A stretch of DNA of 64,000 nt. It comes from a virus. Below the pieces are notes generated by a model. That model did not search any database. It worked only from the letters and a program-made list of their open reading frames with translations, and was not told where the DNA came from. Below, one piece after another: positions 40,075 to 59,191 of this stretch; the first letter of the stretch is position 1, and each line of letters begins with the position of its first letter. The DNA lies in the IMG/VR virus record IMGVR_UViG_3300033066_000693, positions 192,001 to 256,000 of that record; one strand, 5' to 3'. The position numbers were made by a program, and so were the translations under genes.

Positions 40075-40557
40075 CTAATTAGCTATGGATTCTATTGCGG
40101 CTACCACTACATCTGGATCAACAAAAGCTTGTTCGGTAAATACGTCCTGTTCCCAAAGTTCAAACTGCTGAGGCCGCAAAAAGACTCTATCTTTTAGCAA
40201 GTTGATGTTTTGCGCATAGCCGAAAATGTTTGGATCAGAACGACCAAACACAGCTACGCCTCTCTTGCCATGATAAGTGGCGAAATGATTGAAAAAATTG
40301 TCTACCGAAGCCCATGTTGCTGCCTCTGACAACAACTTGGCAAGATCCTTCAATTTTAGGCCTTGCTTGACCTCATCTGCCCCAATAGGGCCTTCCCCCG
40401 GAACGCCAACCTGAATGACACGATAGCCTTTAGACTGCAACTGCTTGGTTACTTCTTTCCACCAAGGATAGTTCTTTGGATTAACTTTGTCAGGGTCAGT
40501 GGGCTTTGCTTTTCTTAGCTTCTTAGAATAAGGACTGATGATTATTGTTTTCTTCAT
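40075..40557 (-). CDS. C-terminal (donor-binding) half of a GT9 heptosyltransferase-like glycosyltransferase, as a separate 160-aa ORF
   Basis: LKLKDLAKLLSEAATWASVDNFFNHFATYHGKRGVAVFGRSDPNIFGY matches the GT9 C-domain pattern (L.eL.all..a.l.ig.DSG..HlAaA.g.P.v.lFG.tdP); ATGA overlap with the upstream ORF, whose C-terminus is the GT9 N-domain. Confidence 0.5.
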   Translation of the reverse strand: MKKTIIISPYSKKLRKAKPTDPDKVNPKNYPWWKEVTKQLQSKGYRVIQVGVPGEGPIGADEVKQGLKLKDLAKLLSEAATWASVDNFFNHFATYHGKRGVAVFGRSDPNIFGYAQNINLLKDRVFLRPQQFELWEQDVFTEQAFVDPDVVVAAIESIAN

Positions 40558-41603
40558 AGTAGCATCTTTCGATAAGCGTCAACAAGTCTTCCCTTCCAAT
40601 TATGCTCAATCATGAAACGGTAAATGTTATGCTTGTCTTGGTCAGGGTCTATAAGCTTAGAATCTGCTATGCTGATAAGCTCAACTCCGTCTTCTCCCTC
40701 AAAGACTTCTGGATAACATACCCCAAGAACAATTGGCTGGTCCTTGTATTTCTCTTTCAGTTCTGGCAGCATCATCTTGAAGGCATAATGATCTCCCAAG
40801 CCGCAATCCAAGACTACAAGCTTGTCATGCATCGTCTGAATGCCATACTCTTCAAGTTTGCGATGGAATACCTTCTCGTCATGCTCCCACAAGAAGGATG
40901 ACTCATAAGAGCGGATACCCCCTCCCGGAGAACGAAGATGCCATATAACAGCCTTAGGGTCTACAATAAGCTTGAAGCCCGCCCTTCGCATTCCATAGGT
41001 AAACAGAGTCTCTTCTCTATGACCAACAGGAGAAAGTTCCATACAATAGCCATGCTTTGCCGCAGACTTGCGAAACAAAAAGCTGTTATTCAAATGGTCA
41101 ACTTCTCTTGCGCCTTCAAATCTAAACCATTGAACATTTGGTCTATTGAATATATGCTCTATCTTGTTAGACGCAAAATGAGAAAGATGAGTAACTTCAC
41201 CGGGAACAAGGATTAATCCGCTAACTGCTCCAACGTCGTCAGCTATGTTACTTACAAGGACTTCTAGAACATTTGATTCAGGAACATCATCGTCGTCTAC
41301 TCGCCATATCCATTCGGTTTTGGCTATCTCAATAGCTGCCTGATGATTATGGACTTGTCCTTTTCGTTGTCCGTAAATTACTTCGCAAGGTATACCCTTT
41401 GAATGGAACATGGCAAATAGGCTAGAGTAAAGAGGGTCCGGCCTCAAGTCTCTTTGCTCGCCATCGTCAAATATGATAACCCTTGCTGGCTTATAGGTTT
41501 GATTAGCGACCGCTGTAAGAGCAAGAGGTAGCGTTGTATGATACCTGTCTTTTGTAGATATCTCTACTGTTACTTCCACTCGTTTTGGTTTCTCATTCTC
41601 CAT
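40554..41603 (-). CDS. GT2 (GT-A fold) glycosyltransferase fused to a GT9 N-terminal domain
   Basis: N-terminal half ISTKDRYHTTLPLALTAVANQTYKPARVIIFDDGEQ (GT2 with DDG); C-terminal KLVVLDCGLGDHYAFKMMLPELKEKYKDQPIVLGV resembles the GT9 N-domain (kIlvirl.alGDvl.t.P.l.alk..yP.a.i). Confidence 0.55.
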   Translation of the reverse strand: MENEKPKRVEVTVEISTKDRYHTTLPLALTAVANQTYKPARVIIFDDGEQRDLRPDPLYSSLFAMFHSKGIPCEVIYGQRKGQVHNHQAAIEIAKTEWIWRVDDDDVPESNVLEVLVSNIADDVGAVSGLILVPGEVTHLSHFASNKIEHIFNRPNVQWFRFEGAREVDHLNNSFLFRKSAAKHGYCMELSPVGHREETLFTYGMRRAGFKLIVDPKAVIWHLRSPGGGIRSYESSFLWEHDEKVFHRKLEEYGIQTMHDKLVVLDCGLGDHYAFKMMLPELKEKYKDQPIVLGVCYPEVFEGEDGVELISIADSKLIDPDQDKHNIYRFMIEHNWKGRLVDAYRKMLL

Positions 41604-42312
41604 GCGTCATCTTTCTTGCTAGAGCATTAGCCCTAAACAGGCTTTCAAAAGTTCCTGCATCTGTCCACTCTCCAGAAACCATCTGGAAAGGCACCTCTCC
41701 TATCTGTAGATACTGATTGTTTACATCGGTAATTTCAAGCTCGCCTCTTGCTGAGGGTTTGAGTTTCTTTATGATGCTAAAAACTCGCCAATCGTAGATA
41801 TACAACCCAGTTACAACAAGATCAGAAACGAAAGCCTTTGGCTTTTCTACTATCGAGATAATCGTATCATTAGCAACTTGCGCAACTCCAAACCGTTCAG
41901 GAGTATTGCTCTTCTTCAAGAAAAGTTTCGCTCCCCATTTGAAATCAGAAACGTCAAACGTGTCTTCGAAGATATTGTCTCCGAGGATTACGGCAACAGA
42001 ATCTACCTTGCCTACAAAATCTTCTCCTAAGCTCAAAGCTTGAGCGATACCACCAGCCTCGTCTTGTATGCGATAGGAAATGCTTACTCCAAAATCTTTA
42101 CCGCTGCCAAGTAACTGAGCAATATGACCGCAATGCTCTATGCCAGAAACAATGAGTATCTCTCGTATACCCATCTTGATAAGAGTCTCAAGCGGATACA
42201 TGATCATTGGCTTGGAATACACAGGCAACAAGTGTTTGTTCGTGACCTTGCAGAGGGGATAAAGTCTTGAACCTGTACCACCCGCCAGTATAATGCCTTT
42301 TTTTACTGACAT
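41593..42312 (-). CDS. rmlA: Glucose-1-phosphate thymidylyltransferase (RmlA-like, short form)
   Basis: KGIILAGGTGSRLYPL...NKHLLPVYSKPMIMYPL...ILGDNIF matches the RmlA/RfbA N-terminal signature. Confidence 0.75.
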   Translation of the reverse strand: MSVKKGIILAGGTGSRLYPLCKVTNKHLLPVYSKPMIMYPLETLIKMGIREILIVSGIEHCGHIAQLLGSGKDFGVSISYRIQDEAGGIAQALSLGEDFVGKVDSVAVILGDNIFEDTFDVSDFKWGAKLFLKKSNTPERFGVAQVANDTIISIVEKPKAFVSDLVVTGLYIYDWRVFSIIKKLKPSARGELEITDVNNQYLQIGEVPFQMVSGEWTDAGTFESLFRANALARKMTHGE

Positions 42313-43160
42313 ATCTTCTCCAATTCTTTATATTTATCATACTTTCTTTCCAACCTATTTTCTCCAACATTACTGTATATCCATTGACATATTTTCAATA
42401 CTTGAAATCTTCCAGTATATCTCATCATATAATGATTAGCTTTTTTATTTTGACACCAGAGTTTGGTGGTTTCGATCCCAACGTACATCACAAGTCTTTT
42501 TTGGATTTCAAGTAGCAGTTCTTTAGTTCCAACAATTTGAAAACAATAGGAGTTTCTTTGCGGATAAATAAGAATACTTCCATCTCCTTCGAATACGCCT
42601 CTGATAAAAGCCCTATCTAAAAATTCTCCTTTTATACAATTAAGATATTCCTCGGCTCCGCTCTTCGTTGGTTTTATTCCGTACTCTATTAGCTTCGAAC
42701 GCAACACTGAAGAAGATATTTTGAGTAATTTCGCCTTGTATGTCTTATTTGTTTTCTTTAGATATGTACTAGAATTAAGAATTGGTCCTGAGTATCCAAA
42801 GAATTTTCTAATATACTCAAGAATAGATTGGTCTTTTATCGCTACTTTGCATCCAAAACAATTTTCATTCTTATGCACAAAACCGTCAGAAAGAAGCCAG
42901 CCTAAAATCCATGCTACATCTGTTGTTACATTATCTAGAGCATCTTCTCTTAAGGTATGAATTTGATTAGAAAGAAAACGATCTTTAGGCAATGACGCAA
43001 TCCCCAGCTTTTTCATTCTTTGAGATATAAACCACTGCGAAACTCCAAACTCTTTGGCTATAGATTTCTGCGATCTTTTCTCCTCAAAGTATTTTTTCCT
43101 GAGATCTAATTCAGAAAGCTCTATTTTCTTATTCTTTGGCATAAGCCATTTATCGACCAA
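42303..43160 (-). CDS. LAGLIDADG homing endonuclease (double-motif) with N-terminal helix-turn-helix, free-standing
   Basis: Motifs VAWILGWLLSDGFV and FIRGVFEGDGSI; HTH-like SIAKEFGVSQWFISQRMKKLGI; inserted between rmlA and the rmlD-like gene. The track start is TTG; the real start is more likely the ATG of MPKNKK 18 nt inside. Confidence 0.65.
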   Translation of the reverse strand: MVDKWLMPKNKKIELSELDLRKKYFEEKRSQKSIAKEFGVSQWFISQRMKKLGIASLPKDRFLSNQIHTLREDALDNVTTDVAWILGWLLSDGFVHKNENCFGCKVAIKDQSILEYIRKFFGYSGPILNSSTYLKKTNKTYKAKLLKISSSVLRSKLIEYGIKPTKSGAEEYLNCIKGEFLDRAFIRGVFEGDGSILIYPQRNSYCFQIVGTKELLLEIQKRLVMYVGIETTKLWCQNKKANHYMMRYTGRFQVLKICQWIYSNVGENRLERKYDKYKELEKICQ

Positions 43161-43239
43161 TACAGCAAATAACTTTAGTTTGTTACCTTAGTAAGAGGCA
43201 TGAGTCGGCTGCCAGTACCGCCAGCTAAAATGATTCCCT

Positions 43240-44100
43240 TCATGCAACCTCCAAGAGGCGTTCTGCTTCAACATACTTTCTTATGCAGGTATCGACAGCG
43301 GTAATCGCTGATCTCAACTGAATACCCTCGTCTTCGAGCTTTCTCGTAGAAAGAACGCAGTTAGACCGACGAACTTTCGTTATCGTGTCAAGTTCTTCTT
43401 CTGAAATGAGAGAGTATTTCAGTTTCTTTCCCGAAATCTCTTCATACATTTTGAGGATTTGCGAATGGAATATAGAGCCTTTGTTTACTACATTGTAAAT
43501 GCCAGAAACATCTTTCTCTATGAGAGTTTTTGCTACATAAAGAAGATCTGGAATGTATGTAATAGAGTTTGCAGATTCAACAATCTTGGAATAGCCTAAG
43601 AGCTTGGTCAACAAATTGCGAGGGTCTGGCTTATCTCCCAATGGCATTCGTATGCGAAGTTGAAGAGCATTCTGTCTGTTCAGGTATCGTTCAGAAACTA
43701 TCTTGGTCCAACTGTAATAACTACCGTCATAGTTTGGAGCGGTCTTTTCGGAATACCCTTCGCCATAATCGTCCCCTTGATACACGCAACCGCTTCCTAT
43801 ATGAACCATTTTCGCTTTATAAGCACGGCATGCTGTTTGAATATATGACGGAACCACAACATTCGAGAAAAACGTTGCCTGCCTATTTTCCTCGCTAGCT
43901 TCGCACCAATCTATATTAGGTCTTCCAGTCTTTCCTAAGCAGTTAATGACATGGGTTGGCCTGTAGTGATAGATTCGACTCATGATTTGGTTATAATCAG
44001 TAATGTACTCGGTATACAGACTTGTAGGATAGAATGTTTGAAAAAACTCGGCAAACTGCTTGCCAAGGTACCCTCCACCAATAACCATTATTGTATACAT
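43240..44100 (-). CDS. NAD(P)-dependent sugar-nucleotide reductase, RmlD-like (dTDP-4-keto-6-deoxyhexose reductase family)
   Basis: Rossmann MVIGGGYLG, catalytic YYSWTK (YxxxK), length 286 aa typical of RmlD; adjacent to rmlB. Confidence 0.55.
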   Translation of the reverse strand: MYTIMVIGGGYLGKQFAEFFQTFYPTSLYTEYITDYNQIMSRIYHYRPTHVINCLGKTGRPNIDWCEASEENRQATFFSNVVVPSYIQTACRAYKAKMVHIGSGCVYQGDDYGEGYSEKTAPNYDGSYYSWTKIVSERYLNRQNALQLRIRMPLGDKPDPRNLLTKLLGYSKIVESANSITYIPDLLYVAKTLIEKDVSGIYNVVNKGSIFHSQILKMYEEISGKKLKYSLISEEELDTITKVRRSNCVLSTRKLEDEGIQLRSAITAVDTCIRKYVEAERLLEVA

Positions 44101-44103
44101 AGC

Positions 44104-45066
44104 TTATTCTTTCAGCATATTACCCCACCATTCGTTATTGGAGAGGTACCATTCGATTGTCGCATCTAAACTAGTATCGAACCCGCTCTTAGGTTTCCAC
44201 CCAAGCTCATGAAGCTTGGTACAATCCAATGAATATCGCAAATCATGACCAAGCCTATCTCCAACAAACTTGATACTAGACTCATTCTTGCCCATCTTTT
44301 TGAGCAAACGTTTGGTAAGATCTATATTACTTACCTCATTACCTCCGCCTATGTTGTATACCTGACCTGCCACTCCATTCTCAATGACAAATGAAATAGC
44401 ATCGCAGTTGTCTTCAACATATATCCAATCTCTTACATTCTTTCCGCTTCCATAAACAGGAACTTGTTCATTTCTAGATAACTTGGCTATAAATAGAGGT
44501 ATGATCTTCTCTGGGAACTGATAAGGTCCAAAGTTGTTTGAAGATCTAGTTATGATTACTGGCTGCTTAAAAGTATGCATTGCTGAAAAACACAGCATCT
44601 CAGCAGCAGCCTTGGAAGCGCTATACGGAGAAGACGGACGAAGTATGTCCTCTTCTGTAGAAGACTTGTGATGAAACTCAAGAGATCCGTATACCTCGTC
44701 AGTAGATATTTGAACAAACAAGCTAGCATTCTTTTCTCTGGCAGCACCAAGCATAAGCGCAGTACCCAGAACATTTGTATGAAGAAACGGTAGCTCATTC
44801 TGGATAGAGCGATCTACATGACTCTCTGCTGCAAAGTTAACAACTATATCGCCTGAACGGATAACGTCCTTTGCCGTAAATCCGTCGCATATGTCCGCTC
44901 GAACAAACGTATAGTTTGGCAAAACATCCAACTCTCTCTTTGTTTCAAGGCTTGCAGCATAGGTCATTTTATCAATATTGACAACGCTATGCGTCCCTTT
45001 GGAAAGAATGCTTCTAATAAAGTTACTACCAATGAATCCTAATCCGCCTGTTACTACTATATTCAT
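44104..45066 (-). CDS. rmlB: dTDP-glucose 4,6-dehydratase (RmlB)
   Basis: IVVTGGLGFIGSNF, FAAESHVDRSI, STDEVYG, SPYSASKAAAE (YxxxK), RDWIYVEDN: canonical RmlB motifs in order. Confidence 0.85.
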   Translation of the reverse strand: MNIVVTGGLGFIGSNFIRSILSKGTHSVVNIDKMTYAASLETKRELDVLPNYTFVRADICDGFTAKDVIRSGDIVVNFAAESHVDRSIQNELPFLHTNVLGTALMLGAAREKNASLFVQISTDEVYGSLEFHHKSSTEEDILRPSSPYSASKAAAEMLCFSAMHTFKQPVIITRSSNNFGPYQFPEKIIPLFIAKLSRNEQVPVYGSGKNVRDWIYVEDNCDAISFVIENGVAGQVYNIGGGNEVSNIDLTKRLLKKMGKNESSIKFVGDRLGHDLRYSLDCTKLHELGWKPKSGFDTSLDATIEWYLSNNEWWGNMLKE

Positions 45067-48000: not shown

Positions 48001-51000
48001 TCTAGAACGTCTAGCTCATTGAAGAACATAAAACAGTCATATACTTTTGGCTTGCTAGGACTAACCCTATCTATAATTGTCAATCCATTGCAGTTATCAA
48101 ATATCTCCCTTATCCTCCATTCCTTATTTTCAGCCAAGAAATCATTAATTGCGTCAACAAGCCCCTTAGAATAGTTCTCTTTGAACTTCCAATCCCACTC
48201 TTCTCCGTCTTGGCTCTTATGCCCAAAAGTAACAGTATCATGCATTATGATGTACTTCTTTACTTTGGACGAGTGCATTCGTAGTTCAGCTAAAAGCTGA
48301 TCATACGAGTGCTTGGTATCAATGAATAGCAAGTCGGTAGGCTCTATCTCTATTTGCAGGCAATCTCTGGCTTCAAATGTGAAGTTGATTCCTTTGCGGC
48401 TTGCCTCGGTAGCCACCTTCTCCACAGCAGGACAATAGAACTTGTCATAAGATCTCATAATCTTAGGAAGTCCTGCAAACAAGCCCCATGTTGAGTTGCC
48501 AGTTCTAACCCCAAACTCTGTTATGTGTTCGCACTCTTGCGCATACTTCTTAAGAGTTGGAAGATGCTCATAGATGTCTCCTGATATCCCCTCATGATTA
48601 GTGCTTCTCTTCTCGTACTCTTCAAGGGTTGGGTCTTTATGCTTTTGCTTGATATAGAGAGCGTTCTTTGGCGATTTCTCCTCGTCATTGCTTGTATAAA
48701 TCTCTCTGAATGTTCCGCCTCCCTTGTGAACCATAGGGAACAAGAACAATCTCTCGTCATTCCCGGGAGACTTATCACTGTATGTGATATCATGAGGAAC
48801 TTCTACAAGAGCATAGCCTTCGTCTGCCGCTCGCTTGCAGTAATCAGCGTCTTCATGATAACCAATACCAAACTCCTCGTCTAGGTATCCTATCTTAGAG
48901 ATTACTTCTCGCTTGATCATAGCGCAGAAGAAAAGAAGATACTCGCTCTGTATATCGCTTCTCCATGACTTCCTAGCCCCTGTAATCCCAACTTTAGGAT
49001 TAGAAAAAGGAGCAGACAATACAGATATCCAAGATCTATCTAGTATCTCTGTGTCATTGTTGAGAAGTATAACATACTCGCCTTCCGCAAGCTTCATGCC
49101 TGCATTCGTTGGCTTAACGTATCCCAATGCCTTATCAAACCAGACAAGCTTGAAAGAAGACCCAAGACTCTCTACGTAGGCTTTCGTGCCATCGGTACAT
49201 CCGTTTGCGACAACGATAACCTCGACATTGCTCATGTCTGTATACTTGATAATGCTTTCAATACAAGGCCTAAGATGATCGTCTAGATGGTTGTATGTTG
49301 GAATGACAATGGAATACTTTGGCTTAATCTTCTTGCTAGGCTTTTCTGCCTCGACTCTCATGTTATAGCCCCAATGAGATGTGAACTGAGGCTCAAGCCT
49401 CTTGAGGTTCGTAAACCCAACGCCTCCAAGATGGTCAAACATGATTTCCTCATACCATCCAAATAGATGAGGATTGCTAACCTTTGGGTCATAGACAGTT
49501 GTACCGTATATGCAGTTGAGGAGAGTATACCTATCTATTTTGTTAGCTGCTTCAAAATGGCGACAGAGTTCTAGAATGTCTGGCAACTCAAGACATAGCT
49601 TTCCTCCGGGTGCCAAAACTCTAAACCATTCAGCAAGGATTGCTGACGCCTCATAGCAAGAAAAATGCTCAAAGACATGGATAGCAGATATCTCGTCAAT
49701 GCTATTGTCTGGGTATTCTAGCTTACGAGCGTCCATTTTTACGTCTGCGGCTGGGCTATACAAGTCAATATTGATGTACCCCGGCATAAGAACGTCGCCG
49801 CATCCTATGTTTAGCTTCTTTTTCTTATTGCCGTATCTATCAAGCAAGATAGCCTCGTTTCTTGCAACGATTTCCGTCCATTTTGGAACGCCATGCACAG
49901 TTTGGCTAGATTTGTGCCAAATAGGGAAATGAATCACATGGTCAGATGCGTCTCTAAGTCTATTATACTTTACGTCATTTGGAACTTGAACAACATCAAG
50001 ATTGGCTTTATGTAACTTCCAACAGTAGTCAATATCCTCGCCATATCCGGGATTAAAGATCTCGTCCAACAATCCAAACTTCTCAATGATGGTATCTTTC
50101 AACATTACGCAGAAAAACAACAAGAACTCGAAGCTTGTCTCGGCATGAAAGTTCTTAGCTGCGCCAGTTATTCCGGTCTTTGGATTATCTATGTAAGGCT
50201 TTTCCAACATTCTAAGCCATTCACTCTTGGGTTGTTCAAGAAGTATGTTGTCATTGTTTAATAGAACAACATACTCTCCCATAGAGATCTTGATTCCTTC
50301 ATTAGTTGCCTTTGTGTAACCAGCGGGGTCAGTCATCCAGAATAGCTTAAATGGATGACCCAATCCTCGAACATAGTCCTTAGTTCCGTCAGTACAGCCA
50401 TTAGCGACAACAATAACTTCAACCTCGTCAAGGTTAGTGTACTTGATAATGCTTTCGAGACATGGCTTGAGACAGTCATCCAAATGGTTATAAGTCGGGA
50501 TAATGATGGAATACTTTGGCTTTGGGTGCTTAGTAATCACAGATTTTCTATTGTGGTCAGTCATCTTGATGTCCTTAAACGTTATTTTGTCTTTGTGATA
50601 GATAGGAAACTCTCTATTGACATTAGGATTATGAAGTAGAGAGTCTGTATCAAAATCTAGATCATAGTGAATGTCAGTAGGGATTTGCTTTATCAGATAT
50701 CCGGCTTTAGAGAGACGAACGCAAAAATCAATGTCCTCTTCATACCCTAAGCCAAATCCCTCGTCCAATATTCCTATCTTATCGAAAATCGACCGTCGAA
50801 TCATGGCACAAAAGAAAACCATGTACGGTTGTCTGAATATCGTCTTACCATTGTTCCATGCTAAGCGAATATCTTTGTTTGGTCCAGTTATACCAGTCTT
50901 AGGATTTTCAATGAAAGGCTTCTCAAGCATATTAAGCCAATCGTTCTTCTTTTGAGGACAAAGAACAACGTCATTGTTGAGCAGTACAACAAACTCTCCC

Positions 51001-51251
51001 CTTGACGCTCGGATACCAGCGTTGGTGGGCTTGATATACCCCTCAGGATTTTTCATCCAAATCAGCTTAAATGTTGGACCAAGACTCTCTACAAAAGCTT
51101 TCGTGCCATCAGTACAGCCATTGGCAACGACAATGACCTCAACCTCGTCAAGGTTAGTGTACTTGATAATGCTTTCGAGACATGGCTTGAGACAGTCATC
51201 CAAATGGTTATAAGTCGGGATGACAATAGAATACTTTACGCTAGAACTCAT
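45063..51251 (-). CDS. 2062-aa multidomain glycosyltransferase/methyltransferase polyprotein
   Basis: Approximate domain map: GT2a 50577-51239, GT2b 49842-50516, class-I SAM MTase 49347-49817 (LNIGCGDVL...HVFEHF), GT2c 48672-49319, Methyltransf_24-like O-MTase 48072-48599 (EFGVRTGNSTWGLFAGLP...LLFIDTKHSY), GT17-like 47262-48050 (YDCFMFFNELDVLEIRLNELD...GKPKPLYF), FkbM-type MTase 46617-47234 (VLDIGGNVGMFS...KIDCEGSEYDIL), second GT17-like 45762-46550, GT2d 45066-45746 (VAIVMPYYN...LVDDGS...CDSDD). Confidence 0.7.
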   Translation of the reverse strand: MSSSVKYSIVIPTYNHLDDCLKPCLESIIKYTNLDEVEVIVVANGCTDGTKAFVESLGPTFKLIWMKNPEGYIKPTNAGIRASRGEFVVLLNNDVVLCPQKKNDWLNMLEKPFIENPKTGITGPNKDIRLAWNNGKTIFRQPYMVFFCAMIRRSIFDKIGILDEGFGLGYEEDIDFCVRLSKAGYLIKQIPTDIHYDLDFDTDSLLHNPNVNREFPIYHKDKITFKDIKMTDHNRKSVITKHPKPKYSIIIPTYNHLDDCLKPCLESIIKYTNLDEVEVIVVANGCTDGTKDYVRGLGHPFKLFWMTDPAGYTKATNEGIKISMGEYVVLLNNDNILLEQPKSEWLRMLEKPYIDNPKTGITGAAKNFHAETSFEFLLFFCVMLKDTIIEKFGLLDEIFNPGYGEDIDYCWKLHKANLDVVQVPNDVKYNRLRDASDHVIHFPIWHKSSQTVHGVPKWTEIVARNEAILLDRYGNKKKKLNIGCGDVLMPGYINIDLYSPAADVKMDARKLEYPDNSIDEISAIHVFEHFSCYEASAILAEWFRVLAPGGKLCLELPDILELCRHFEAANKIDRYTLLNCIYGTTVYDPKVSNPHLFGWYEEIMFDHLGGVGFTNLKRLEPQFTSHWGYNMRVEAEKPSKKIKPKYSIVIPTYNHLDDHLRPCIESIIKYTDMSNVEVIVVANGCTDGTKAYVESLGSSFKLVWFDKALGYVKPTNAGMKLAEGEYVILLNNDTEILDRSWISVLSAPFSNPKVGITGARKSWRSDIQSEYLLFFCAMIKREVISKIGYLDEEFGIGYHEDADYCKRAADEGYALVEVPHDITYSDKSPGNDERLFLFPMVHKGGGTFREIYTSNDEEKSPKNALYIKQKHKDPTLEEYEKRSTNHEGISGDIYEHLPTLKKYAQECEHITEFGVRTGNSTWGLFAGLPKIMRSYDKFYCPAVEKVATEASRKGINFTFEARDCLQIEIEPTDLLFIDTKHSYDQLLAELRMHSSKVKKYIIMHDTVTFGHKSQDGEEWDWKFKENYSKGLVDAINDFLAENKEWRIREIFDNCNGLTIIDRVSPSKPKVYDCFMFFNELDVLEIRLNELDSVVDKFVLAEARYSHQGKPKPLYFEQNKERFKKFLHKIEHVIVEEFPPTTDTWVREPYQRNQIARGLKDCKDNDIIILSDVDEIPRASVVKQYNISMGICCLQTRLFYYRLNLETPIKWYKVRIFPYAELKGRNLQYFRGENDYGYKHVFEDAGWHFSFLGDKDHIKDKINNWAHDEFNNDRINNDDNVVKSIENGKDVLGRDLSFSPVQIDETYPKFVRDNLKKFEEKGLIFVPRKAIDIRETFLAYESNLFHEVIGLNSYSVFREDVENKSVLDIGGNVGMFSYLCTTLGAKKIVSFEPIEETYKLLVSNMKQYSNVHPVHVAVSSPGTTEVVLEGGGPVAKLSENGNGSKIKAISLAQALEYFPGDNDVVLKIDCEGSEYDILLKADPRDILRCKTIFAEFHNTLHPNKEYNFSMLREYIEKLGYDCVPIQEHQMGFWMFNPASGAYDIFIPLDPKLINTKNFKFVRKEKAKPKPKVYDCFCFFNELDILEVRLNELDPYVDHFVLCEMNVTHSGKPKPLYFNENKERFRRFWPKIIHVIINECPQTDNAWVREHYQRNFMINSLLQCQENDIIILSDLDEIPRGSKIQEYKGQKDWMYFEQHQYNYYLNMSVGISKPGPGAYSRITTFGNLKKVNYGLTDLRYQTITENDRIADGGWHFGWMGGAEKIVEKLESYAHQELNKPEFTNAEKIQQNIDSCKEALGRDNPPHVPVLVSIDSTYPKFIVENQERFLQKKWIKSGRVAIVMPYYNDKDMLVSSTMAIVSQTYRDWVLFLVDDGSSLENRASTILGRKKDSRIKIIEKPNGGVSSARNAALDKIKESGGFEYIAYCDSDDVWDENHLSSQIKALQEADLVYSEVRHEFTDGSIAYPDGIPNPPEYPGLEFMRRCPFIYISSVVHKAKCLSVGGFDSSLDSIEDWDMWVRIAKAGYKFKKNSDSKITYTVKFSSNMASKRTPEISDRFHKKNNS
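50421..51240 (-). repeat. Intragenic duplication: about 100-nt near-identical segments at 50421-50520 and 51141-51240 (start of the GT2a and GT2b modules)
   Basis: tcaacctcgtcaaggttagtgtacttgataatgctttcgagacatggcttgagacagtcatccaaatggttataagtcggga occurs twice almost verbatim. Confidence 0.7.
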
Positions 51252-51306
51252 TCAGCGCTGCCTTTCGGTTATACCTTATCTATCGGTTAGGAAGAGGATC
51301 TAGGAC

Positions 51307-52299
51307 TTACTGGAAACGCATATCCGAGCCTCTGCCCTTAGAACCTCTTGGTCCTATTCTTGGAGTTTGAACAATCGGGCTTCCCTTTGGCTTATTAGCA
51401 CAACAGGTTTGCAAAAGCTCAAATGTCTTCTGAATGCTGTTTCCTAGCTCTTTATCAACTCTTGCAAGCTCGTCTAGGGTTTTGCCTGTAGAGATGGAGA
51501 TGGCAATGAGAATTGCTTGCTGTAGGGCGGTAAAATCGCAATCTACGACTCCGCCTGCCGTTAGAGTACGATTTGCATACTCCCAAATCTGTTGAGGGGT
51601 TATCGCAGAACTTGTAAGGGTTCTTGTTCCATACTCCCACACCTTGCGAGCGATTTCCAACCAATCGCCCTGCTCTTTGCCCCAGCAGACTCGTAGCGTT
51701 CCTGTATTGAGATCGACAGAGCGATTAGGGGTAGCTCCCTTTCGCTGCCAAACCTCTAAATAGTAGTATTGATTACCGACTACAGGAGGTATATTGCTTA
51801 CATCTGTAATGATGTACTCATAAAAACCCAACCTTTCGCTGTCTTCTACAAGAGGAAGAACAAAGTCCGTTTGAGTAGCAAGCGTATAGGTTTCAAACGT
51901 GCCTGTCGAAGGCTTCCATGCTTTATCCAAGTCTTCTGCCGAGAACAAAAGAGCGTAAAGTGTCAGTGCTGGCTGGTCGCTGTATGTAATGTCAAAAACT
52001 GTATCAATCTCTCCAACGCAGCATTCATTATTTGCGCAGCATAGAGAATCTTCATTGGTTATGTCTATGAATGACAAGACTTTAGAAGTATCGTTTTGGT
52101 CATAGAACTTTACCCCTCCGCGAAAGTTTTCAGGAACGTTGTTGTATTCCCAAAGATAGAAACCTTCGCCAATCTCAATAAAGCCATCGGAGATGAGGGG
52201 AGTCACGTTTGCCCCAGAAGTCTTGATAAGCTGGGCGCAAAGGGATACTCCGGCGTAACCGGCTCCCAAGTTTACTGATATTGCAATGTTGGATGGCAT
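51307..52299 (-). CDS. 330-aa structural protein, paralog (N-terminal 75 aa) of the 35665..36147 product
   Basis: Shared N-terminal module (see 35665..36147); Cys-rich CCANNECC patch mid-protein. Confidence 0.55.
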   Translation of the reverse strand: MPSNIAISVNLGAGYAGVSLCAQLIKTSGANVTPLISDGFIEIGEGFYLWEYNNVPENFRGGVKFYDQNDTSKVLSFIDITNEDSLCCANNECCVGEIDTVFDITYSDQPALTLYALLFSAEDLDKAWKPSTGTFETYTLATQTDFVLPLVEDSERLGFYEYIITDVSNIPPVVGNQYYYLEVWQRKGATPNRSVDLNTGTLRVCWGKEQGDWLEIARKVWEYGTRTLTSSAITPQQIWEYANRTLTAGGVVDCDFTALQQAILIAISISTGKTLDELARVDKELGNSIQKTFELLQTCCANKPKGSPIVQTPRIGPRGSKGRGSDMRFQ

Positions 52300-52318
52300 A
52301 GTTATTCTTCGACCACTT

Positions 52319-52915
52319 TCATGCTAAACCTACTATTGTTTTTACGCTAGCAATAGCAAGTCCGTCTATTGTTTTTACGCTGGCTCTAGCAAGTCCTACT
52401 ACTGTTTTTTGAGATGTGCTTGAAGCTGTATAGTCTATAGAAATAGAAAAAGAATCTATACTACAAGTACATGCTTTAGGGCCAGCCCTCCTCACACTAA
52501 TCACCACGCCAAATGTACTGGCATTCACATCTGTATCAGTGAGTGTGTTTCCCCACAAATTAGATGTTGAGCCATATGTTACATCAGTAGCAGCATTAGG
52601 CCAATTGGTTGCTGTAACACCTAAGTTACTACCGCTTACTGTACCACCTTTTACTAAAGAAACAACAACATCTCTACCATTTGTGGTAGCTTTTTTATTA
52701 ATTGTTACAGTGATTCCATTGATTGTAGCACCAGAAGGAACAGAAAAACCAAAGTTTGTAGCTTTCAGATAATGAGACTGTGCAGAGGGAGCAGCATTTG
52801 TTGCAAACGTGCTGTTTGTAGTCCCTTGAGCATTAGTAACATTAGACCACGCTGTAGTACCAACAGAAGCGTCATCGGCAACCGTACCTGCATTATTCGG
52901 ACCTGCTGTTGACAC
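52319..52915 (-). CDS. 198-aa Thr/Ser/Asn/Gly-rich protein ending in tandem 11-aa repeats (KTVVGLARASV / KTIDGLAIASV / KTIVGLA)
   Basis: ORF; the C-terminus is encoded by a 33-nt tandem repeat at 52322-52412. Confidence 0.5.
   Translation of the reverse strand: MSTAGPNNAGTVADDASVGTTAWSNVTNAQGTTNSTFATNAAPSAQSHYLKATNFGFSVPSGATINGITVTINKKATTNGRDVVVSLVKGGTVSGSNLGVTATNWPNAATDVTYGSTSNLWGNTLTDTDVNASTFGVVISVRRAGPKACTCSIDSFSISIDYTASSTSQKTVVGLARASVKTIDGLAIASVKTIVGLA
52322..52412 (-). repeat. 33-nt tandem repeat, about 2.7 copies (ctattgtttttacgctagcaatagcaagtccgt-like)
   Basis: Seen directly at the 3' end of the 52319..52915 CDS. Confidence 0.6.
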
Positions 52916-53527
52916 TTAAAATCTCCTAAGACTAGAATCTACAAACTTCAAAGCATTCTCATTTACTGGCAAGCCTACAAAATTTGCTATTCCTTGAATT
53001 GTTATCTCAGAATTATCTACTAATTGATCAAACTCTACAATTAACTTGGGGACATTAGCAATTGCAAGTTGCGCATTATGTACCTCAATAAGTTTTGCAT
53101 ACCGCTCTTCAGTATTAGGATCGTTTGCTCTAGCTCTCCAACTTTCCTTACTTTTTTCAAGAGGTCGCTGCGTGATAATAAGTTTTATATCAGGCAAATT
53201 CAAAAACTCATCAGCTAAAAATCCAATAAGATGGTTCTTGACTCCCCATATTATTCCTCTGCTCATTCGATCTTGAATGATTCTCCTAATCCTCAATCGT
53301 CCATCATTATTTGAATCAATAGGTAGAGTCCATGTAATCGGATCATTTTCATTAATTAGCTCTAAGGCTTCAGTTATAATTCGATCAACAAAAAATCCTT
53401 TAGCATTCCATTCTGGATCTGATTCAAATAAATCATCTCCCATATGAACACCTAAATTATGTAATATTCCAGCGATACAACTAGTTCCACTTCTTGGTAA
53501 GCCTAAAACTAAAACGCATGTTCCCAT
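52916..53527 (-). CDS. Sulfotransferase (Stf0/Sulfotransfer_3-like)
   Basis: N-terminal VLVLGLPRSGTSCIAGIL matches the PAPS 5'-phosphosulfate-binding loop (PRSGTT/PKSGTT); later IITQRPLEKSKES fits the 3'-phosphate-binding R-x(n)-S element; about 200 aa, as in small bacterial sulfotransferases. Confidence 0.5.
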   Translation of the reverse strand: MGTCVLVLGLPRSGTSCIAGILHNLGVHMGDDLFESDPEWNAKGFFVDRIITEALELINENDPITWTLPIDSNNDGRLRIRRIIQDRMSRGIIWGVKNHLIGFLADEFLNLPDIKLIITQRPLEKSKESWRARANDPNTEERYAKLIEVHNAQLAIANVPKLIVEFDQLVDNSEITIQGIANFVGLPVNENALKFVDSSLRRF

Positions 53528-53536
53528 ATTTCGCCT

Positions 53537-56500
53537 TTAGGTATGAGTGATATAAGTCAGATCAGGGAAGAAATACATTCTATCAGCATGAGTAGCAATA
53601 CCGAGTACCTGAATTACATTATCGGTTGCGCTAGGCTGAGTTTGAGTCAAGGCTCCTGCTGTGGTTGAAAGATAAACTATACCGCCGACAGTCCAAGCCC
53701 ATGCATCATTACGAGCTATTCCATGCAGCAAAATATTGCCAGCATTGCTTGATGTTATTGTAGCTGTAGCCATTCCCATACACGGATAAGTAGCTGAACC
53801 ATCTGCGTCAGCCTTCCATACAAGACCATCAGATTTTAGATAAACAACATCTCCGAATGCTAGATTTTCTCCTGCTGTCAAACTGATTATTAAGCCATTT
53901 GCTGTTACGTCTGATCCCGGAACCGCTGTAAGAGACAAAGCTCCTGAATAACCGCTGTAAGCTGAGTATCCCGAGAAGCCTGACGAACCTTGCGTTCCAA
54001 TATATCCTGAGAAGCCGCTATAAGCCGAGTAACCGCTTCGACCACTATAAGCTGAGTAACCAGAGAAGCCGCTTATACCAGAGTAAGCAGAATAGCCACT
54101 GAAGCCGCTTAGACCGCTATATCCTGAGAAGCCACTATCCCCGCATATGGCTGTTATACAGAAATTTGCTCTTAGAAGAGTAATTACATCCGTATTTATC
54201 ATATTCTTAATGCGTATATCAACCGTGTCTGTTGCAGACAATGACAATACGCCGGTAAGAGATACTGAAAATATTCCGGTATTAGGATCTGTTGTTGTTG
54301 TTCTAGTGACAATGTTAGATTGAATACCATTTACAAAAACAGAGAAATTGAAGTTGACCGCAGTAATGGCACTATTAAAAGACAATGAAGCGTTTACTAA
54401 GTAAGCCCCATCTGATCCTGCAATAGCTTGACCAGCAGAATTTGTAAATCCTACTTGCGAACTTAGAGTTAGACCACTAAGAGAGTCCCAATCACCAGAT
54501 CCATCATATACCCAACCGCTTACTCCATCAGTCGTATCAACTAGTTCAATATAAGAAGCTACTCCCGGAGTCGCTGCCGCTCCGCTATAACCACTGAAAG
54601 CAGAGTAACCACTAAAGCCAGAGAAGCCGCTGTAAGCTGAATAACCGCTGCGACCGCTATAAGCAGAGTAGCCAGAGAAGCCTGAGACGCCTGAGTAAGC
54701 GGAGTAACCGCTGAAGCCAGAAGGCCCGCTGTAGCCGCTGAAACCGCTCGGTCCTGAATAACCACTAAAGCCAGAAGGCCCGCTGTAGCCTGAGAAGCCG
54801 CTTATGCCAGAATAAGCTGAATAGCCTGATCGCCCACTGTACCCTGAGAAGCCACTAGCTCCATCAACGCCAATAATTCCATCTGATCCTTTATATCCGC
54901 TGAAGCCGCTTATACCAGAATAAGCAGAGTAACCGCTGAAGCCAGAGATACCGCTATAAGCAGAGTAGCCCGAGAAGCCTGAAGATCCCTGCGGTCCTAT
55001 GTAACCAGAGAAACCGCTGTAGCCAGATTTTCCTGAGTATCCGCTGAATCCAGATCCACCGTCTGCCCAACTTGTATTACCAAATCCATCTGTTCTTAGG
55101 AACTGACCATTGACTCCGCCGCTTGTAGGAGGGGAGAATGAAGAACTATAAGTTCCTGCCTGTGGATATATTGAAACGGTACCAGTATTTCCGCTGTTGT
55201 ATAAAGAGAAACCAATACCATCTCTAAATTGAACAGGATTACTTGCGCTGAATCTCCATGTTGTTTCGTTAACATCATTTACTTCTAGTTGTAACTGCGA
55301 AACATCTCCGATTTTATCCACTCTCAAAATATCATAACTAAAATCACCGCTATTTGGGCTTTGTTTGATTATGAGTGATGAAGTATCATTACTTGTCGGA
55401 GTAATTGTATTACGAGTTGGAGAACTAGGAGCAACAAGAACTGCCTCGTTCAAATTGGCAGAATAACCGCTGTATCCTGATACTCCAATATAACCGCTGT
55501 ATCCTGAGAAACCGCTATAAGCAGAATAACCACTCTTACCGCTGTAGCCTGAGAAGCCGCTATAAGCAGAATAACCACTAAAGCCAGAAGAACCTTGCGG
55601 CCCAACGTAGCCTGAGAAGCCAGAAGACGCAGCCGCGCCGTCAGCGCCTTTATCTCCTGTTCTTGTAAAGCTTATTACAACCACATCATCAGTCGAGAAC
55701 AAAAAGCCAGATACAAAACTGCCTGTAACATAGGTTACCGGGATAAACAAGCCCCATGTATTGCTTCCGTCAGCAACTACCGATCCTGTTATTTGAAAAT
55801 CAGCAAAAACTGACGAGTTATCTTCTTTGAAAACTCTAATAGATCCCTTAGTAGTATTAGTGCTATCATCAATAGCATTAATCCATGTGGTTATATCTGT
55901 TCCAGATGAATTGAGAGGACTAATACCAACAAATCCTGCTAAAGTAGGATCTGCTGTTGTATTACCTATAGTTGTATTAAATGCCAAAACGCCCGGATAT
56001 GGTCCTGAGCCAGATATTCCCGACTCCTCGTATATATACTCTTGACTATCTCCGCCAAATGCCCCTATTAGACCGCTAAAGCCTGAGAATCCGCTTGTTC
56101 CAGTTCCACTATAACCTGAGAAGCCGCTATAGCCTGAAAATGCTGAATAGCCCGAGAAAGCCGAGTACCCGGAGAAGCCTGAGTAAGCAGAGTAACCGCT
56201 CTTGCCGCTGTAGCCTGAGAATGCAGAATAGCCTGATACTCCGCTGTAACCGCTAAAGCCTGACGTACCGCTGTAAGCTGAATATCCTGAGAAACCTGAG
56301 ATACCTTGCGCACCAATGTAACCACTGAAGCCCGAAGAACCTTGCGTTCCTATGTAACCTGAGAAGCCTGAAGAGCCAGAGTAAGCAGAGTATCCGCTTA
56401 TGCCACTGTAAGCTGAGTAACCCGAGAAACCGCTTATGCCACTGTAAGCTGAATATCCGCTAGAACTAGCCGAGCCGTCTAATCCCTTATCCCCTGCGCG

Positions 56501-57187: not shown

Positions 57188-57226
57188 ATGCTACAATACC
57201 AAAAAACAGCCATCAACCCTTCAGTT

Positions 57227-58327
57227 TTAGAATACTGAATTAGACGACGAGGGGGCTTGAGTTGCCCCAATATCCCTGTACGGAACCAAGCCAATCGCTC
57301 TACCTACTGCTGTTGGTTTAAGGGTGAAATTCTTATTTGTTGCAGCATCAATATAATCTGATGTATACGTTCCATTATCAGTTGTCATAGGATTCTGCAA
57401 CGGCCAGTCTCCTGTATTGTTGTTCGCATTTGTATTATCTCTTGTACGATTGCGGATTAGAGCATTCGGACAAACTGCGCCAGTATATAGATTTTTCAAG
57501 AAGTATCCGCAATCTGTTGCATGACAGTTTACAATTGTATGTACAACTCCTGTAGCATTTGCGCTATTAGGTACTTGAATAGCAGCCGTACTACAGTTAT
57601 AGAATGTGCAGTTTATAATGTTGCTAGGATATGCATTGTTGACGGACTGCATATCAATACCAACAAGACTATCTCTCATAATACAATCAATAACAGTACA
57701 ACTTGTACGAGTAGCAATACAACTTCCAACTCCGCCATAGAGTTTACATCCAATGACTGCATTGTTTTGTTGTAAAGCTATGCATGTTGCAACGTCTGTA
57801 CCAGTTTTCTTTACATCGCAACCTATAATATGCACCTGCCAACCATAAGATGCAAACGCAGAAGATACAGAAAAGCCAGCATTGTATTGGTTTTCAGCAT
57901 AACAGTTGTATGCATATCCATAGTTACCATTGAACAAGATCATTTCATTTGATCTTGAGCCTACTATCTTCAATCCCTCAATAATATTACCATCGCCGTT
58001 CAATGATATTCTATCTTGCGCAGCCATATTAATTACAGGCATACCAGTTGTAACAAGATCTCCATTAGCGTCTCTTGAGTAAGTAAGATCGCCAATAGTG
58101 TTTGTATAACCACGTATCCATGCTGGGCTAGCAGATGTTTGAGTGTTCAACGTAGTAAAAGCTGCGCCGCCGTTATTGACTGTATATGTTCCAGCCTTTA
58201 CATTAAGACGTATACCTGCGCCAACATGCTGAATGCCTGTAATAAAATCCCAAGCATCAGAAGAATCATTAGTTCCTCCGTGGCCAGAAGTTCCGCTTGT
58301 AGTTACATATCTTTCAGTCCAAGCCAT
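57227..58327 (-). CDS. Right-handed parallel beta-helix protein (tailspike/polysaccharide depolymerase candidate)
   Basis: Repeated N/C/G-rich turns: IGCDVKKTG, NNAVIGCKLYGGVGSC, NCTFYNCSTAAI, VNCHATDCGYF, about 22-aa periodicity typical of pectate-lyase-type beta-helices. Confidence 0.5.
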   Translation of the reverse strand: MAWTERYVTTSGTSGHGGTNDSSDAWDFITGIQHVGAGIRLNVKAGTYTVNNGGAAFTTLNTQTSASPAWIRGYTNTIGDLTYSRDANGDLVTTGMPVINMAAQDRISLNGDGNIIEGLKIVGSRSNEMILFNGNYGYAYNCYAENQYNAGFSVSSAFASYGWQVHIIGCDVKKTGTDVATCIALQQNNAVIGCKLYGGVGSCIATRTSCTVIDCIMRDSLVGIDMQSVNNAYPSNIINCTFYNCSTAAIQVPNSANATGVVHTIVNCHATDCGYFLKNLYTGAVCPNALIRNRTRDNTNANNNTGDWPLQNPMTTDNGTYTSDYIDAATNKNFTLKPTAVGRAIGLVPYRDIGATQAPSSSNSVF

Positions 58328-58328
58328 T

Positions 58329-58733: not shown

Positions 58734-58736
58734 AAT

Positions 58737-59144: not shown

Positions 59145-59191
59145 TTTTATCTCCCTATAATCATGTTAAACATCGGATATCATAAGCAATA

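Follow-up and report, generated by a model that had tools for sequence, protein, structure and literature searches.

The tailed phage examined here encodes a minimal sulfotransferase (ST) of the PAPS type, with its signature motifs intact, within a cluster of collagen-like fiber genes and glycosylation genes. The ST gene forms a two-gene cassette with a CBM-like beta-sandwich companion encoded directly downstream, and its relatives are linked to APS kinase and to glycosyltransferases (GTs). New among these observations are the probable translational coupling of the ST and companion genes, a pair found side by side at 7 of 14 diverged loci, the APS kinase gene upstream of ST in two related phages, and the fusion of distant viral homologs to GT25 or GT2 domains. 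We see roughly an even chance that the protein is a functional PAPS-dependent enzyme that acts as a cassette with its companion and O-sulfates a glycan of the virion. The window, by which we mean the whole stretch of DNA analyzed, comprises 64 kb of a roughly 258-kb genome, and the phage is without a cultured relative in searches of 50,697 deposited phage genomes.

Results

The 203-aa ORF named in the original prediction is real and runs from ATG to TAA, but it lies on the minus strand (Table 1); the plus-strand frame across the same positions is riddled with stops. With a GC content of 34.6% (z = -2.5) and the lowest GC3 among 39 ORFs, the gene is compositionally foreign. Promoter and terminator scans returned chance-level results that are uninformative on operon boundaries, and the 64-kb window holds no tRNAs.

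Transcription proceeds from fiber to ST to the giant glycosyltransferase/methyltransferase (GT/MT) gene, reversing the earlier description of ST as upstream of the fiber gene and downstream of the GT/MT gene. Two ORFs, the 198-aa companion and a 330-aa protein with no match in Pfam, PHROG or NCBIfam, separate ST from the giant gene. The fiber gene directly 5' of ST, which encodes 739 aa in near-identical relatives (L001 to L004), specifies a C terminus that resembles a phage cement protein (Phage_cement_2, 1e-4), and the same-strand block begins upstream with the 1533-aa fiber gene. Around ST, the window carries dTDP-sugar-type synthesis genes and GT2, GT4, GT9, GT17 and FkbM-methyltransferase domains. 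Pfam and PHROG annotation of the neighbors thus bears out the proposed setting, a phage fiber and glycosylation cluster. In relatives, this cluster, including the fiber C terminus, is inherited as a single 98%-identical block; contigs carrying the identical ST protein are 30 kb at most. A role in DNA modification for the GT/ST cluster was set aside; the flanking genes are all structural or act on sugar nucleotides.

Table 1. Features of the sulfotransferase locus, with positions in the window
Feature	Position	Strand	Evidence or remark
Third collagen-like fiber gene, 491 aa	38555..40030	(-)	Pfam Collagen 2e-35; PHROG tail-fiber families; far flank of the glycosylation genes
Nucleotide-sugar synthesis and further GT gene block	40075..45066	(-)	Pfam
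GT9-like gene	40075-40557	(-)	Pfam
GT2 gene	40554-41603	(-)	Pfam
NTP_transferase	41593-42312	(-)	Pfam
LAGLIDADG endonuclease	42303-43160		Pfam; interrupts the nucleotide-sugar/GT block
RmlD-like gene	43240-44100	(-)	Pfam
RmlB-like dehydratase	44104-45066	(-)	Pfam
Giant multidomain GT/MT gene, 2062 aa	45063..51251	(-)	Pfam: Glycos_transf_2 in 4 stretches (1e-78), Glyco_transf_17 in 2 stretches (4e-66); methyltransferase domains Methyltransf_21/FkbM, Methyltransf_11 and CmcI-like
330-aa ORF	51307..52299	(-)	Between companion and giant GT/MT gene; conserved with ST in L001 to L006
Companion gene, 198 aa, CBM-like beta-sandwich protein	52319..52915	(-)	Directly downstream of ST
AGGAG Shine-Dalgarno of companion	52923..52927	(-)	Lies within the final ST codons; junction ...CTTAGGAGATTTTAAGTGTCA...
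ST gene, 203 aa, minimal PAPS-type sulfotransferase fold	52916..53527	(-)	ATG-to-TAA ORF
3'-Phosphate-binding motif R121-x7-S129	53141..53167	(-)	Conservation and alignment
W94-G-V-K97, candidate catalytic/bridging-oxygen lysine	53237..53248	(-)	Conservation and alignment
5'-Phosphosulfate-binding (PSB) loop G9-L-P-R12-S-G-T-S16	53480..53503	(-)	Sequence; alignment to TPST1 GVPRSGTT
Collagen-like fiber gene, 1216 aa	53537..57187	(-)	Directly 5' of ST (9-nt gap); Pfam Collagen 5e-45; PHROG tail-fiber families
Collagen-like fiber protein with PA14, 1533 aa	59192..63793	(-)	Pfam Collagen 1e-89, PA14 1e-14; PHROG tail-fiber families

Both motifs on which the gene had been recognized, a PSB loop (GLPRSGTS) at the start of the ORF and a downstream R-x-n-S element, are present. 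The loop occupies residues 9 to 16 and is near-invariant, with G9, R12, G14, T15 and S16 each kept in at least 135 of 152 family representatives; in the structure model, its P11-R-S-G-T-S16 portion comes after strand E3-9. The second element takes the form R121-x7-S129 (152/152 and 150/152), follows strand E114-120 of the model, and aligns with the R...S of TPST1 "MVRDGRASVHS" and of Stf1 "THRPVETIMAS." A third conserved element contains W94 (148/152), G95 (146/152) and K97 (145/152), the last aligned with the Lys of TPST1 "CNKDP" and Stf1 "LKNP," and we read a putative catalytic role for K97 across from these two enzymes. A six-frame translation of the 64 kb yields a single match to P[RK][ST]G[ST][ST], located in the ST ORF. 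Because the loop pattern is unique, the residues are conserved and the Pfam score lies above its cutoff, the motif pair is beyond chance.

The catalytic base of sulfotransferases is a His in cytosolic SULTs and a Glu in TPST and heparan sulfate sulfotransferases. Here, D31 and D32 align with the Glu-Glu of TPST1 and are acidic in just 79 and 48 of 152 relatives, respectively. D48 is kept in 141 of the 152 representatives and aligns with no counterpart.

The enzyme class that the original prediction assigned is upheld by profile and structure comparisons. The Pfam family Sulfotransfer_3 (PF13469) matches ST at 30.8 bits, above its 27-bit cutoff (E = 4.6e-7), a marginal score for a single sequence, and is recovered in 125 of 134 relatives; PF00685 is matched by 83 of the 134. 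When a profile of the family was compared with PDB sequences, the significant matches were all sulfotransferases, including Stf1 (1.2e-10), Stf9, TPST1 and TPST2 over the full length, SULT1A1 and the CurM ST. This resolution was obtained only with the 134-sequence profile: an 8-sequence profile reached no significance against the PDB, and a single-sequence phmmer search returned noise only (ClpC N-domain and oxalyl-CoA decarboxylase, E > 0.3). The top structural matches are likewise all sulfotransferases, and the fold is nearer solved sulfotransferases than nucleotide kinases.

Relatives of ST are known from metagenomic sequences alone, where the only names are those of two bacterial MAG proteins labeled "sulfotransferase" by homology; the family is present in 21 IMG/VR contigs. 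A tblastn search of the 50,697 deposited phage genomes with ST (E <= 1e-3) gave no match (none in INPHARED), as did region megablast and tblastn of a 712-aa protein against the same genomes and comparison of ST with PHROGs and NCBIfam. A paper on the "moraphage" jumbo phages, considered as a candidate source lineage, contains no mention of sulfotransferases or of collagen-like fibers. Two phage contigs carry an APS kinase gene just ahead of the ST homolog and overlapping it (L008, 4e-38; L048, 3e-32). No APS kinase or ATP sulfurylase was found in the 64-kb window by tblastn with the L008 protein or by a Walker-A scan. Fusions to GT25 (L016, L017 and L018) or to GT2/GT7C (L015) occur among viral homologs, namely the more distant ones (HMM E 1e-28 to 1e-37), with none among the closest. 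GT2 genes adjoin ST homologs in two further contigs (L013 and L051), and in MAGs, GT domains are fused to bacterial homologs or lie beside them (L028 and L030). Elsewhere, ST occurs with or without the companion among nonstructural genes with no GT nearby (L042, L052 and L053) or among unrelated small ORFs (L053 and L009).

The spacing at their junction suggests that ST and companion are translationally coupled. Adjacency was sampled at 14 ST loci and at 6 companion loci, and in 3 of the 6, which were sampled blind, ST lies directly upstream. Members of the companion family are found in crAss-like tail modules and in structural modules, one bears a TIG (Ig-like) extension (L010) and another ends in a poly-Thr tail (L042). 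The protein, which has no PHROG or NCBIfam match, is probably exposed on the virion. Its Y49 is invariant and Y162 near-invariant, both conserved tyrosines fall within predicted beta-strands, and no acidic unstructured Tyr-bearing segment is evident.

Discussion

The reading we prefer is O-sulfation of a virion glycan. Sharing a strand with the fiber genes and expressed late, ST would bind the 5'-phosphosulfate of PAPS through its PRSGTS loop (R12, S13, T15 and S16) and grip the 3'-phosphate with R121 and S129, while K97 would stabilize the leaving group, all by homology; an acidic base, for which D48 or the TPST-aligned D31/D32 are candidates, would act on the acceptor hydroxyl. The substrate would be a sugar of the glycan built by the neighboring phage GTs and methyltransferases and carried on a virion fiber or decoration protein, whether the companion, the collagen-like fibers or both. 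Sulfated, negatively charged fibers would be the outcome. PAPS may be host-made or the product of a phage APS kinase whose gene lies beyond the 64-kb window, as in related phages. Catalytic activity, the acceptor and the location of the product on the virion are what we infer. The context favors a glycan as acceptor because of the GT fusions and adjacencies and the fiber-glycosylation setting of the cluster, and the link to PAPS is drawn because APS kinase lies directly upstream of two homologs.

Several observations weigh against this reading: the TPST-like structural ranking, a window lacking APS kinase and ATP sulfurylase, GT fusions that belong to distant homologs, nonstructural contexts without GTs (L042, L052 and L053), which make the cassette independent of a glycosylation cluster, poor conservation of the base candidates D31/D32 and a marginal single-sequence Pfam score.

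A broader proposal, which we advance tentatively, is that ST and its coupled companion make up a tailed-phage cassette for virion sulfation, mobile and self-contained, preceded in some phages by a PAPS-synthesis gene. That gene, compact and encoding an APS kinase joined to a nucleotidylyltransferase-like domain, would supply phage-made activated sulfate for sulfate esters on an exposed virion protein or glycan. The resulting polyanionic fibers might mimic sulfated polysaccharides of the host or environment, with consequences for adhesion, shielding and evasion of receptor-like decoys.

The main rival, unlikely in our judgment, is direct sulfation of Tyr or Ser/Thr residues of the companion or fiber, with no glycan, by a protein sulfotransferase like TPST or RaxST. 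The closest structural and profile similarity of ST is indeed to the protein-tyrosine sulfotransferases (TPST) rather than to carbohydrate sulfotransferases, and D31/D32 align with the TPST catalytic Glu-Glu. However, identity to TPST is just 17 to 20%, with Stf1, Stf9 and an olefin synthase ST scoring nearly as well, and the ranking may merely reflect TPST being a compact sulfotransferase. Compared with human TPST1 and TPST2 (PDB 5wri and 3ap3), the phage protein is about 70 to 80 residues shorter and soluble, having neither membrane anchor nor Golgi context, and the catalytic Glu is not conserved, the aligned acidic positions 31 and 32 being variable across the phage family. The tight, coupled ST-companion pair does recur without GT genes (L042 and L052), and the invariant Y49, the near-invariant Y162 and the poly-Thr tail of one companion offer possible acceptors; yet the conserved tyrosines lie in predicted beta-strands, not acidic disordered segments, and the GT-ST fusions indicate sugar acceptors.

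Modification of a host envelope polysaccharide (LPS, capsule or EPS) by ST and the neighboring GTs, with superinfection exclusion or progeny release as the benefit and the virion as no target, strikes us as distinctly unlikely. Domains of the giant GT match phage GT/O-antigen-conversion families (phrog_22739, GtrB-like), the GT-linked bacterial homologs in MAGs fit such a role, and a CBM-like companion could bind polysaccharide. Nonetheless, ST and companion sit between same-strand fiber genes, the companion family occurs in tail and structural modules with Ig-like extensions, and the cluster and fiber C terminus have passed on as one block. On an informal look, no flippase, membrane-anchor or signal-peptide features were noticed in ST or companion.

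A very improbable alternative is an auxiliary metabolic ST acting on a small molecule (metabolite, lipid or signal), a moron that came to lie in a structural region by chance. The foreign composition of the gene would suit it, as would the homologs amid unrelated small ORFs and the usual listing of phage PF13469 genes as AMGs of unclear function (PMC10580990), but recurrent adjacency to companion, APS kinase and GTs, together with the GT fusions, points to a dedicated macromolecular pathway. The weakest alternative, that ST is a generic P-loop nucleotide kinase or NTPase and no sulfotransferase, was named in the original prediction as the refuting outcome and is itself effectively refuted already by profile and structure: the PSB loop has Thr where Walker A (GxxxxGK[ST]) needs Lys before the final residue and is therefore no Walker A motif, R-x7-S is invariant in the family, AAA_18 matches 2 of 134 relatives against the 125 for Sulfotransfer_3 and reaches ST itself with E of 0.034 and 15 bits (cutoff 29.4), the Walker-A scan of the window passes over the ST ORF, and kinases are absent from the 54 PDB sequence matches of the 134-sequence family profile at E < 1 as well as from the top structural matches.

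A sulfated virion, if it exists, would extend known phage surface chemistry by a strongly charged modification, with implications for host recognition, immune recognition, attachment to mucus or sulfated polysaccharides, and the reading of "auxiliary" sulfur-metabolism genes in viromes. Should the cassette proposal hold, no earlier phage particle would be known to be sulfated, and the modification would form a new class among the posttranslational changes of phage virions; if the enzyme turns out to be a plain moron with a host molecule as its substrate, the result is routine annotation. The searched literature contains no demonstration of phage particle sulfation, and for giant viruses it holds a genomic prediction only (PMC10117803). 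The locus and its relatives offer a small testable system for the role of phage sulfotransferase genes, which has been called unclear (PMC10580990): an enzyme of 203 aa offering four evident residues for mutation, a candidate partner or acceptor of 198 aa encoded next to it, and an APS kinase in related phages.

A genomic parallel is found in the fibril-glycosylation clusters of the Megavirinae, where Moumouvirus australiensis carries a sulfotransferase (Ma461) and a SAT/APS kinase (Ma457), Cotonvirus has ORF724/725, and sulfated sugars on the fibrils are the authors' prediction, awaiting validation (PMC10117803). In both systems, ST lies amid nucleotide-sugar synthesis genes and multidomain GTs, the latter fibril-decorating in Megavirinae. 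The APS kinase partner parallels that of the two related phage contigs (L008 and L048), whereas the phage window has none; a companion-like partner is not described in the Megavirinae clusters. These are eukaryotic giant viruses rather than tailed phages, and the 263-aa Ma461 is likened to the phage protein by gene context.

For the chemistry, NodH and other carbohydrate or glycolipid sulfotransferases of PF13469 perform PAPS-dependent sugar O-sulfation, as proposed for the phage enzyme (PMC11625862). NodH is likened to it by Pfam family, and its target is a rhizobial lipo-chitooligosaccharide signal, not a virion component. The mycobacterial Stf1 and Stf9 (PDB 2zq5 and 2z6v) are cellular rather than viral proteins of about 380 to 410 aa with large insertions, and their alignment to the phage ST is weak in the N-terminal loop region. 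For the target, mycobacteriophages supply a precedent: phage GTs glycosylate virion proteins there (Freeman et al. 2023, cited in PMC12619734), the same logic as proposed here. The targets are capsid and tail-tube C termini rather than collagen-like fibers, and no sulfation is reported there.

Genes of PF13469 occur in the MVGs of OM43 phages and in Synechococcus phage S-SRM01, in a role stated to be unclear, and these marine-phage reports do not describe a structural or glycosylation context (PMC10580990). Such genes, and the presence of the family in 21 IMG/VR contigs, qualify the earlier statement that sulfotransferases are rare in phages, which holds for the ST subfamily in its lack of PHROG and INPHARED matches. 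With no tblastn match in the deposited phage genomes and no PHROG, the ST subfamily is therefore a different and more divergent lineage than the PF13469 proteins of marine phages.

Identity of the sulfotransferase

The 203-aa ORF, the 5'-phosphosulfate loop and the downstream Arg/Ser element described for the sulfotransferase (ST) in the original prediction are all present. The plus-strand frame of 52916-53527 has stops throughout, and the ST ORF holds the only instance of the pattern P[RK][ST]G[ST][ST] in a six-frame translation of the whole window.

In single-sequence searches ST gave a marginal Pfam result, with 30.8 bits to Sulfotransfer_3 (cutoff, 27) and a score slightly under cutoff to Sulfotransfer_4, had no match in PHROG or NCBIfam, and retrieved noise only from PDB sequences; we therefore assembled its family. 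A word-indexed search returned only 8 relatives (33-38% identity), whose alignment was used in an exhaustive HMM search that recovered a large family with members of ~200 aa: 14,340 cluster representatives reach E <= 1e-3, and 3,026 reach E <= 1e-10. Against PDB sequences, a 134-sequence profile of the family matched sulfotransferases only, including the mycobacterial Stf1 (1.2e-10) and Stf9 (6.6e-8), tyrosylprotein sulfotransferase TPST1 (3.5e-7, aligned across residues 4-194), SULT1A1 (~1e-6) and the CurM sulfotransferase (5e-6), and 125 of the 134 members individually match Sulfotransfer_3. A kinase is almost certainly the wrong reading: Thr replaces the Walker A Lys in the loop, and the profile found no kinase among PDB sequences at E < 1, so that the outcome which would have refuted the original prediction, a generic P-loop NTPase or kinase, did not come about.

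Conservation was counted over 152 family representatives. R121 is invariant (152/152) and S129 nearly so (150); the loop residues G9, R12, G14, T15 and S16 are each kept in at least 135, and the others are N41 (137), G44 (145), D48 (141), W94 (148), G95 (146) and K97 (145). In TPST1, GVPRSGTT aligns with the ST loop G-L-P-R-S-G-T-S, the Lys of CNKDP with K97, and R-DGRASVH-S with R121 through S129; from sulfotransferase enzymology, we take these, in order, to be the loop that holds the 5'-phosphosulfate, the catalytic Lys, and the Arg and Ser responsible for binding the 3'-phosphate. There are two candidates for the catalytic base: D31/D32, which align with the TPST Glu-Glu yet vary across the family, and D48, which is conserved in the family and has no aligned counterpart. 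ST has a sulfotransferase fold with an intact predicted PAPS site, and we regard it with high confidence as a true PAPS-type sulfotransferase.

Gene neighbourhood

ST and all its relevant neighbours lie on the minus strand. The original prediction misread the strand and so reversed the gene order: in transcription order, ST follows the fibre gene, after a gap of 9 nt, and precedes the giant glycosyltransferase (GT)/methyltransferase gene, with two ORFs, the companion and the 330-aa ORF, in between. Its placement inside a phage structural and glycosylation cluster is borne out by the fibre, sugar and GT genes around it. Beyond the third fibre lie a tail tube protein (Phage_tube_2) and two GT4 genes, and the window belongs to a tailed phage. 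We found no relatives of it among deposited phage genomes; a protein identical to ST is recorded on a 257,887 bp contig. The 64-kb window holds no PAPS-synthesis genes.

Features of the ST neighbourhood, in transcription order
Feature	Position	Strand	Remarks
1533-aa collagen-like fibre	59192-63793	minus	PA14 domain
Small ORF	58737-59144	minus	
Small ORF	58329-58733	minus	matches virion-structural PHROG
366-aa beta-helix protein	57227-58327	minus	
1216-aa collagen-like fibre	53537-57187	minus	C-terminus cement-protein-like
ST, 203 aa	52916-53527	minus	ATG at 53527, TAA at 52916
5'-phosphosulfate loop, residues 9-16 of ST	53480-53503	minus	G-L-P-R-S-G-T-S
R-x7-S pair of ST	53141-53167	minus	R121/S129
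Companion, 198 aa	52319-52915	minus	
330-aa ORF	51307-52299	minus	no assigned function
2062-aa protein	45063-51251	minus	four GT2 stretches, two GT17 stretches, several methyltransferase domains
RmlB-like, RmlD-like and RmlA-like sugar-nucleotide enzymes, then GT2 and GT9-like genes	40075-45066	minus	series split by LAGLIDADG endonuclease
Third collagen-like fibre	38555-40030	minus	

Several neighbours have features of their own. Collagen repeats flank the PA14 domain of the 1533-aa fibre (residues 692-820, 1e-14), which is a module of the carbohydrate-binding or adhesin type. The methyltransferase domains of the 2062-aa protein are FkbM, class-I and CmcI-like, all in one polypeptide with the GT stretches; its counterpart in L001/L002, near-identical relatives of the window, has 2046 aa. 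The 2062-aa protein is similar to the very large multi-GT proteins encoded in Megavirinae glycosylation clusters, among them Ma468, which has four GT domains (PMC10117803). The 330-aa ORF carries repeated W-E-Y-x-x-R-T-L-T motifs, and its N-terminus resembles that of a 160-aa ORF (35665-36147), both containing ...AQL...(T/S)GAN(V/I)T...DGF(I/V)EIG..., a likeness suggesting that the two share an N-terminal domain for attachment or adaptor function.

A recurrent cassette

HMMs of the ST family and of the companion were used to scan related loci (21 IMG/VR loci, 14 bacterial or archaeal MAG loci and 12 contig look-ups), with neighbourhood statistics based on 14 ST loci and 6 companion loci. A companion homolog lies directly downstream of ST in 7 of 14 distinct loci with close stand-alone ST homologs (the window, L008, L010/11, L042, L044, L048 and L052), and the ST stop and companion start of paired loci usually abut or overlap. 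Because the paired ST proteins are just 30-38% identical to each other, the pairs are independent. In the reverse test, on six companion-family loci picked by size of available contig alone, an ST-family gene is directly upstream in three (L044, L048 and, weakly, L050). In the window, the companion GTG start directly follows the ST stop (TAAGTG), with AGGAG within the last ST codons ahead of that start; from this spacing we take the companion to be a translationally coupled partner of ST.

Linkage of ST to PAPS synthesis and to glycosyltransferases is likewise recurrent. Two loci, L008 and L048, have an APS kinase gene (Pfam 4e-38 and 3e-32, respectively) that is directly upstream of ST and overlaps it, giving the operon order APS kinase, ST, companion. 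Among the more distant viral homologs there are fusions to GT25 (L016, L017 and L018) and to GT2/GT7C (L015), GT2 genes flank ST in L013 and L051, and in bacteria the homologs either are fused to GT2-like domains or lie next to them.

The APS kinases of L008 (9210-9989, 259 aa) and L048 (4672-5394, 240 aa) have two domains, APS_kinase at the N-terminus and a weak cytidylyltransferase-like match at the same C-terminal position (E 1e-3 and 3e-3), with a WHAGH motif in L008; as read from sequence, both could be bifunctional PAPS synthases of compact size. On viral contig L016 three sulfotransferase genes stand side by side (9281-13286): the GT25-ST fusion, a Sulfotransfer_2 (PF03567) ORF (10825-11466) and a stand-alone ST-family member (12645-13286). 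A thioredoxin-like ORF (3169-3789; Pfam 2.9e-6) is just upstream of the L052 pair, whose surroundings, with a ParB-like gene nearby, otherwise look non-structural.

The companion family has at least 200 matches, most of ~190 aa, and the predicted structure of the companion is a confident beta-sandwich (pLDDT 86.9), a generic fold assignment. Members without ST occur in crAss-like phage tail modules (L045 2225-2788 and L046 8001-8564), beside CrAss_Ring, crAss_MUZ and PTL_trimer genes, and near a capsid gene in L047 (6001-6564), flanked by a weak GT62-like ORF, a Laminin_G_3 protein and a 1064-aa GT4 protein. The simplest reading of the companion is a virion accessory protein exposed at the surface. 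ST-paired companions have variable C-terminal extensions: a ~45-residue poly-Thr tract in L042 (10633-11331), an IPT/TIG domain (2e-15) in L010 (10615-11517), an Ig-like repeat region in L052 (4581-5369) and, in the window, a tail with a repeated ASVKTIxGLA motif.

Proposed function and precedents

In the function we propose, ST would O-sulfate a sugar of the glycan made by the neighbouring enzymes, with PAPS supplied by the host or by an APS kinase that the phage would encode outside the window; that glycan would be borne by the companion, the collagen-like fibres or both. This full statement, a PAPS-type sulfotransferase with a virion glycan as acceptor, we hold with middling confidence. Direct sulfation of protein, to which TPST as the top structural match of ST and the presence of the pair with no nearby GT in L042 and L052 would point, seems unlikely to us; a target in the host envelope is more doubtful still, and a small-molecule or auxiliary metabolic role is quite improbable.

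Carbohydrate sulfotransferases, NodH among them, belong to PF13469 (PMC11625862), and genes of that family are listed in OM43 phage genomes and Synechococcus phage S-SRM01, where their function was termed unclear (PMC10580990). The nearest conceptual precedent for the locus of ST is found in the fibril-glycosylation clusters of the Megavirinae Moumouvirus australiensis and Cotonvirus, which combine a sulfotransferase with SAT/APS kinase and for which sulfated sugars are the authors' prediction, pending validation (PMC10117803). Given these precedents, ST adds a new and divergent member to an enzyme kind already known, and its setting had been foreseen for giant viruses. For tailed phages, we found no literature describing the recurrent ST-companion cassette, whether or not APS kinase is included, and this cassette makes the sulfation prediction experimentally tractable.

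Inheritance and origin

The fibre and glycan-synthesis block containing ST has been inherited as a unit, since the window and L001 are 98.06% identical across 43001-55561 (GT cluster, 330-aa ORF, companion, ST and the C-terminal part of the fibre) versus merely 78-80% across 56960-59336, with the 1533-aa fibre gene barely alignable. The recombination breakpoint, near 55561, is within the collagen-like fibre gene upstream of ST (compare L001 7772-9991). That fibre has 1216 aa in the window versus 739 aa in L001-L004, with 300 versus 189 residues in G-X-Y runs and the final 120 residues identical. The composition of ST suggests horizontal acquisition as a moron-like gene: its GC is 34.6% (z = -2.46, 39 ORFs), it ranks last among these ORFs in GC3 (21.6%), and only the LAGLIDADG homing endonuclease gene (42303-43160), which interrupts the sugar-nucleotide genes, is lower in GC (33.4%).
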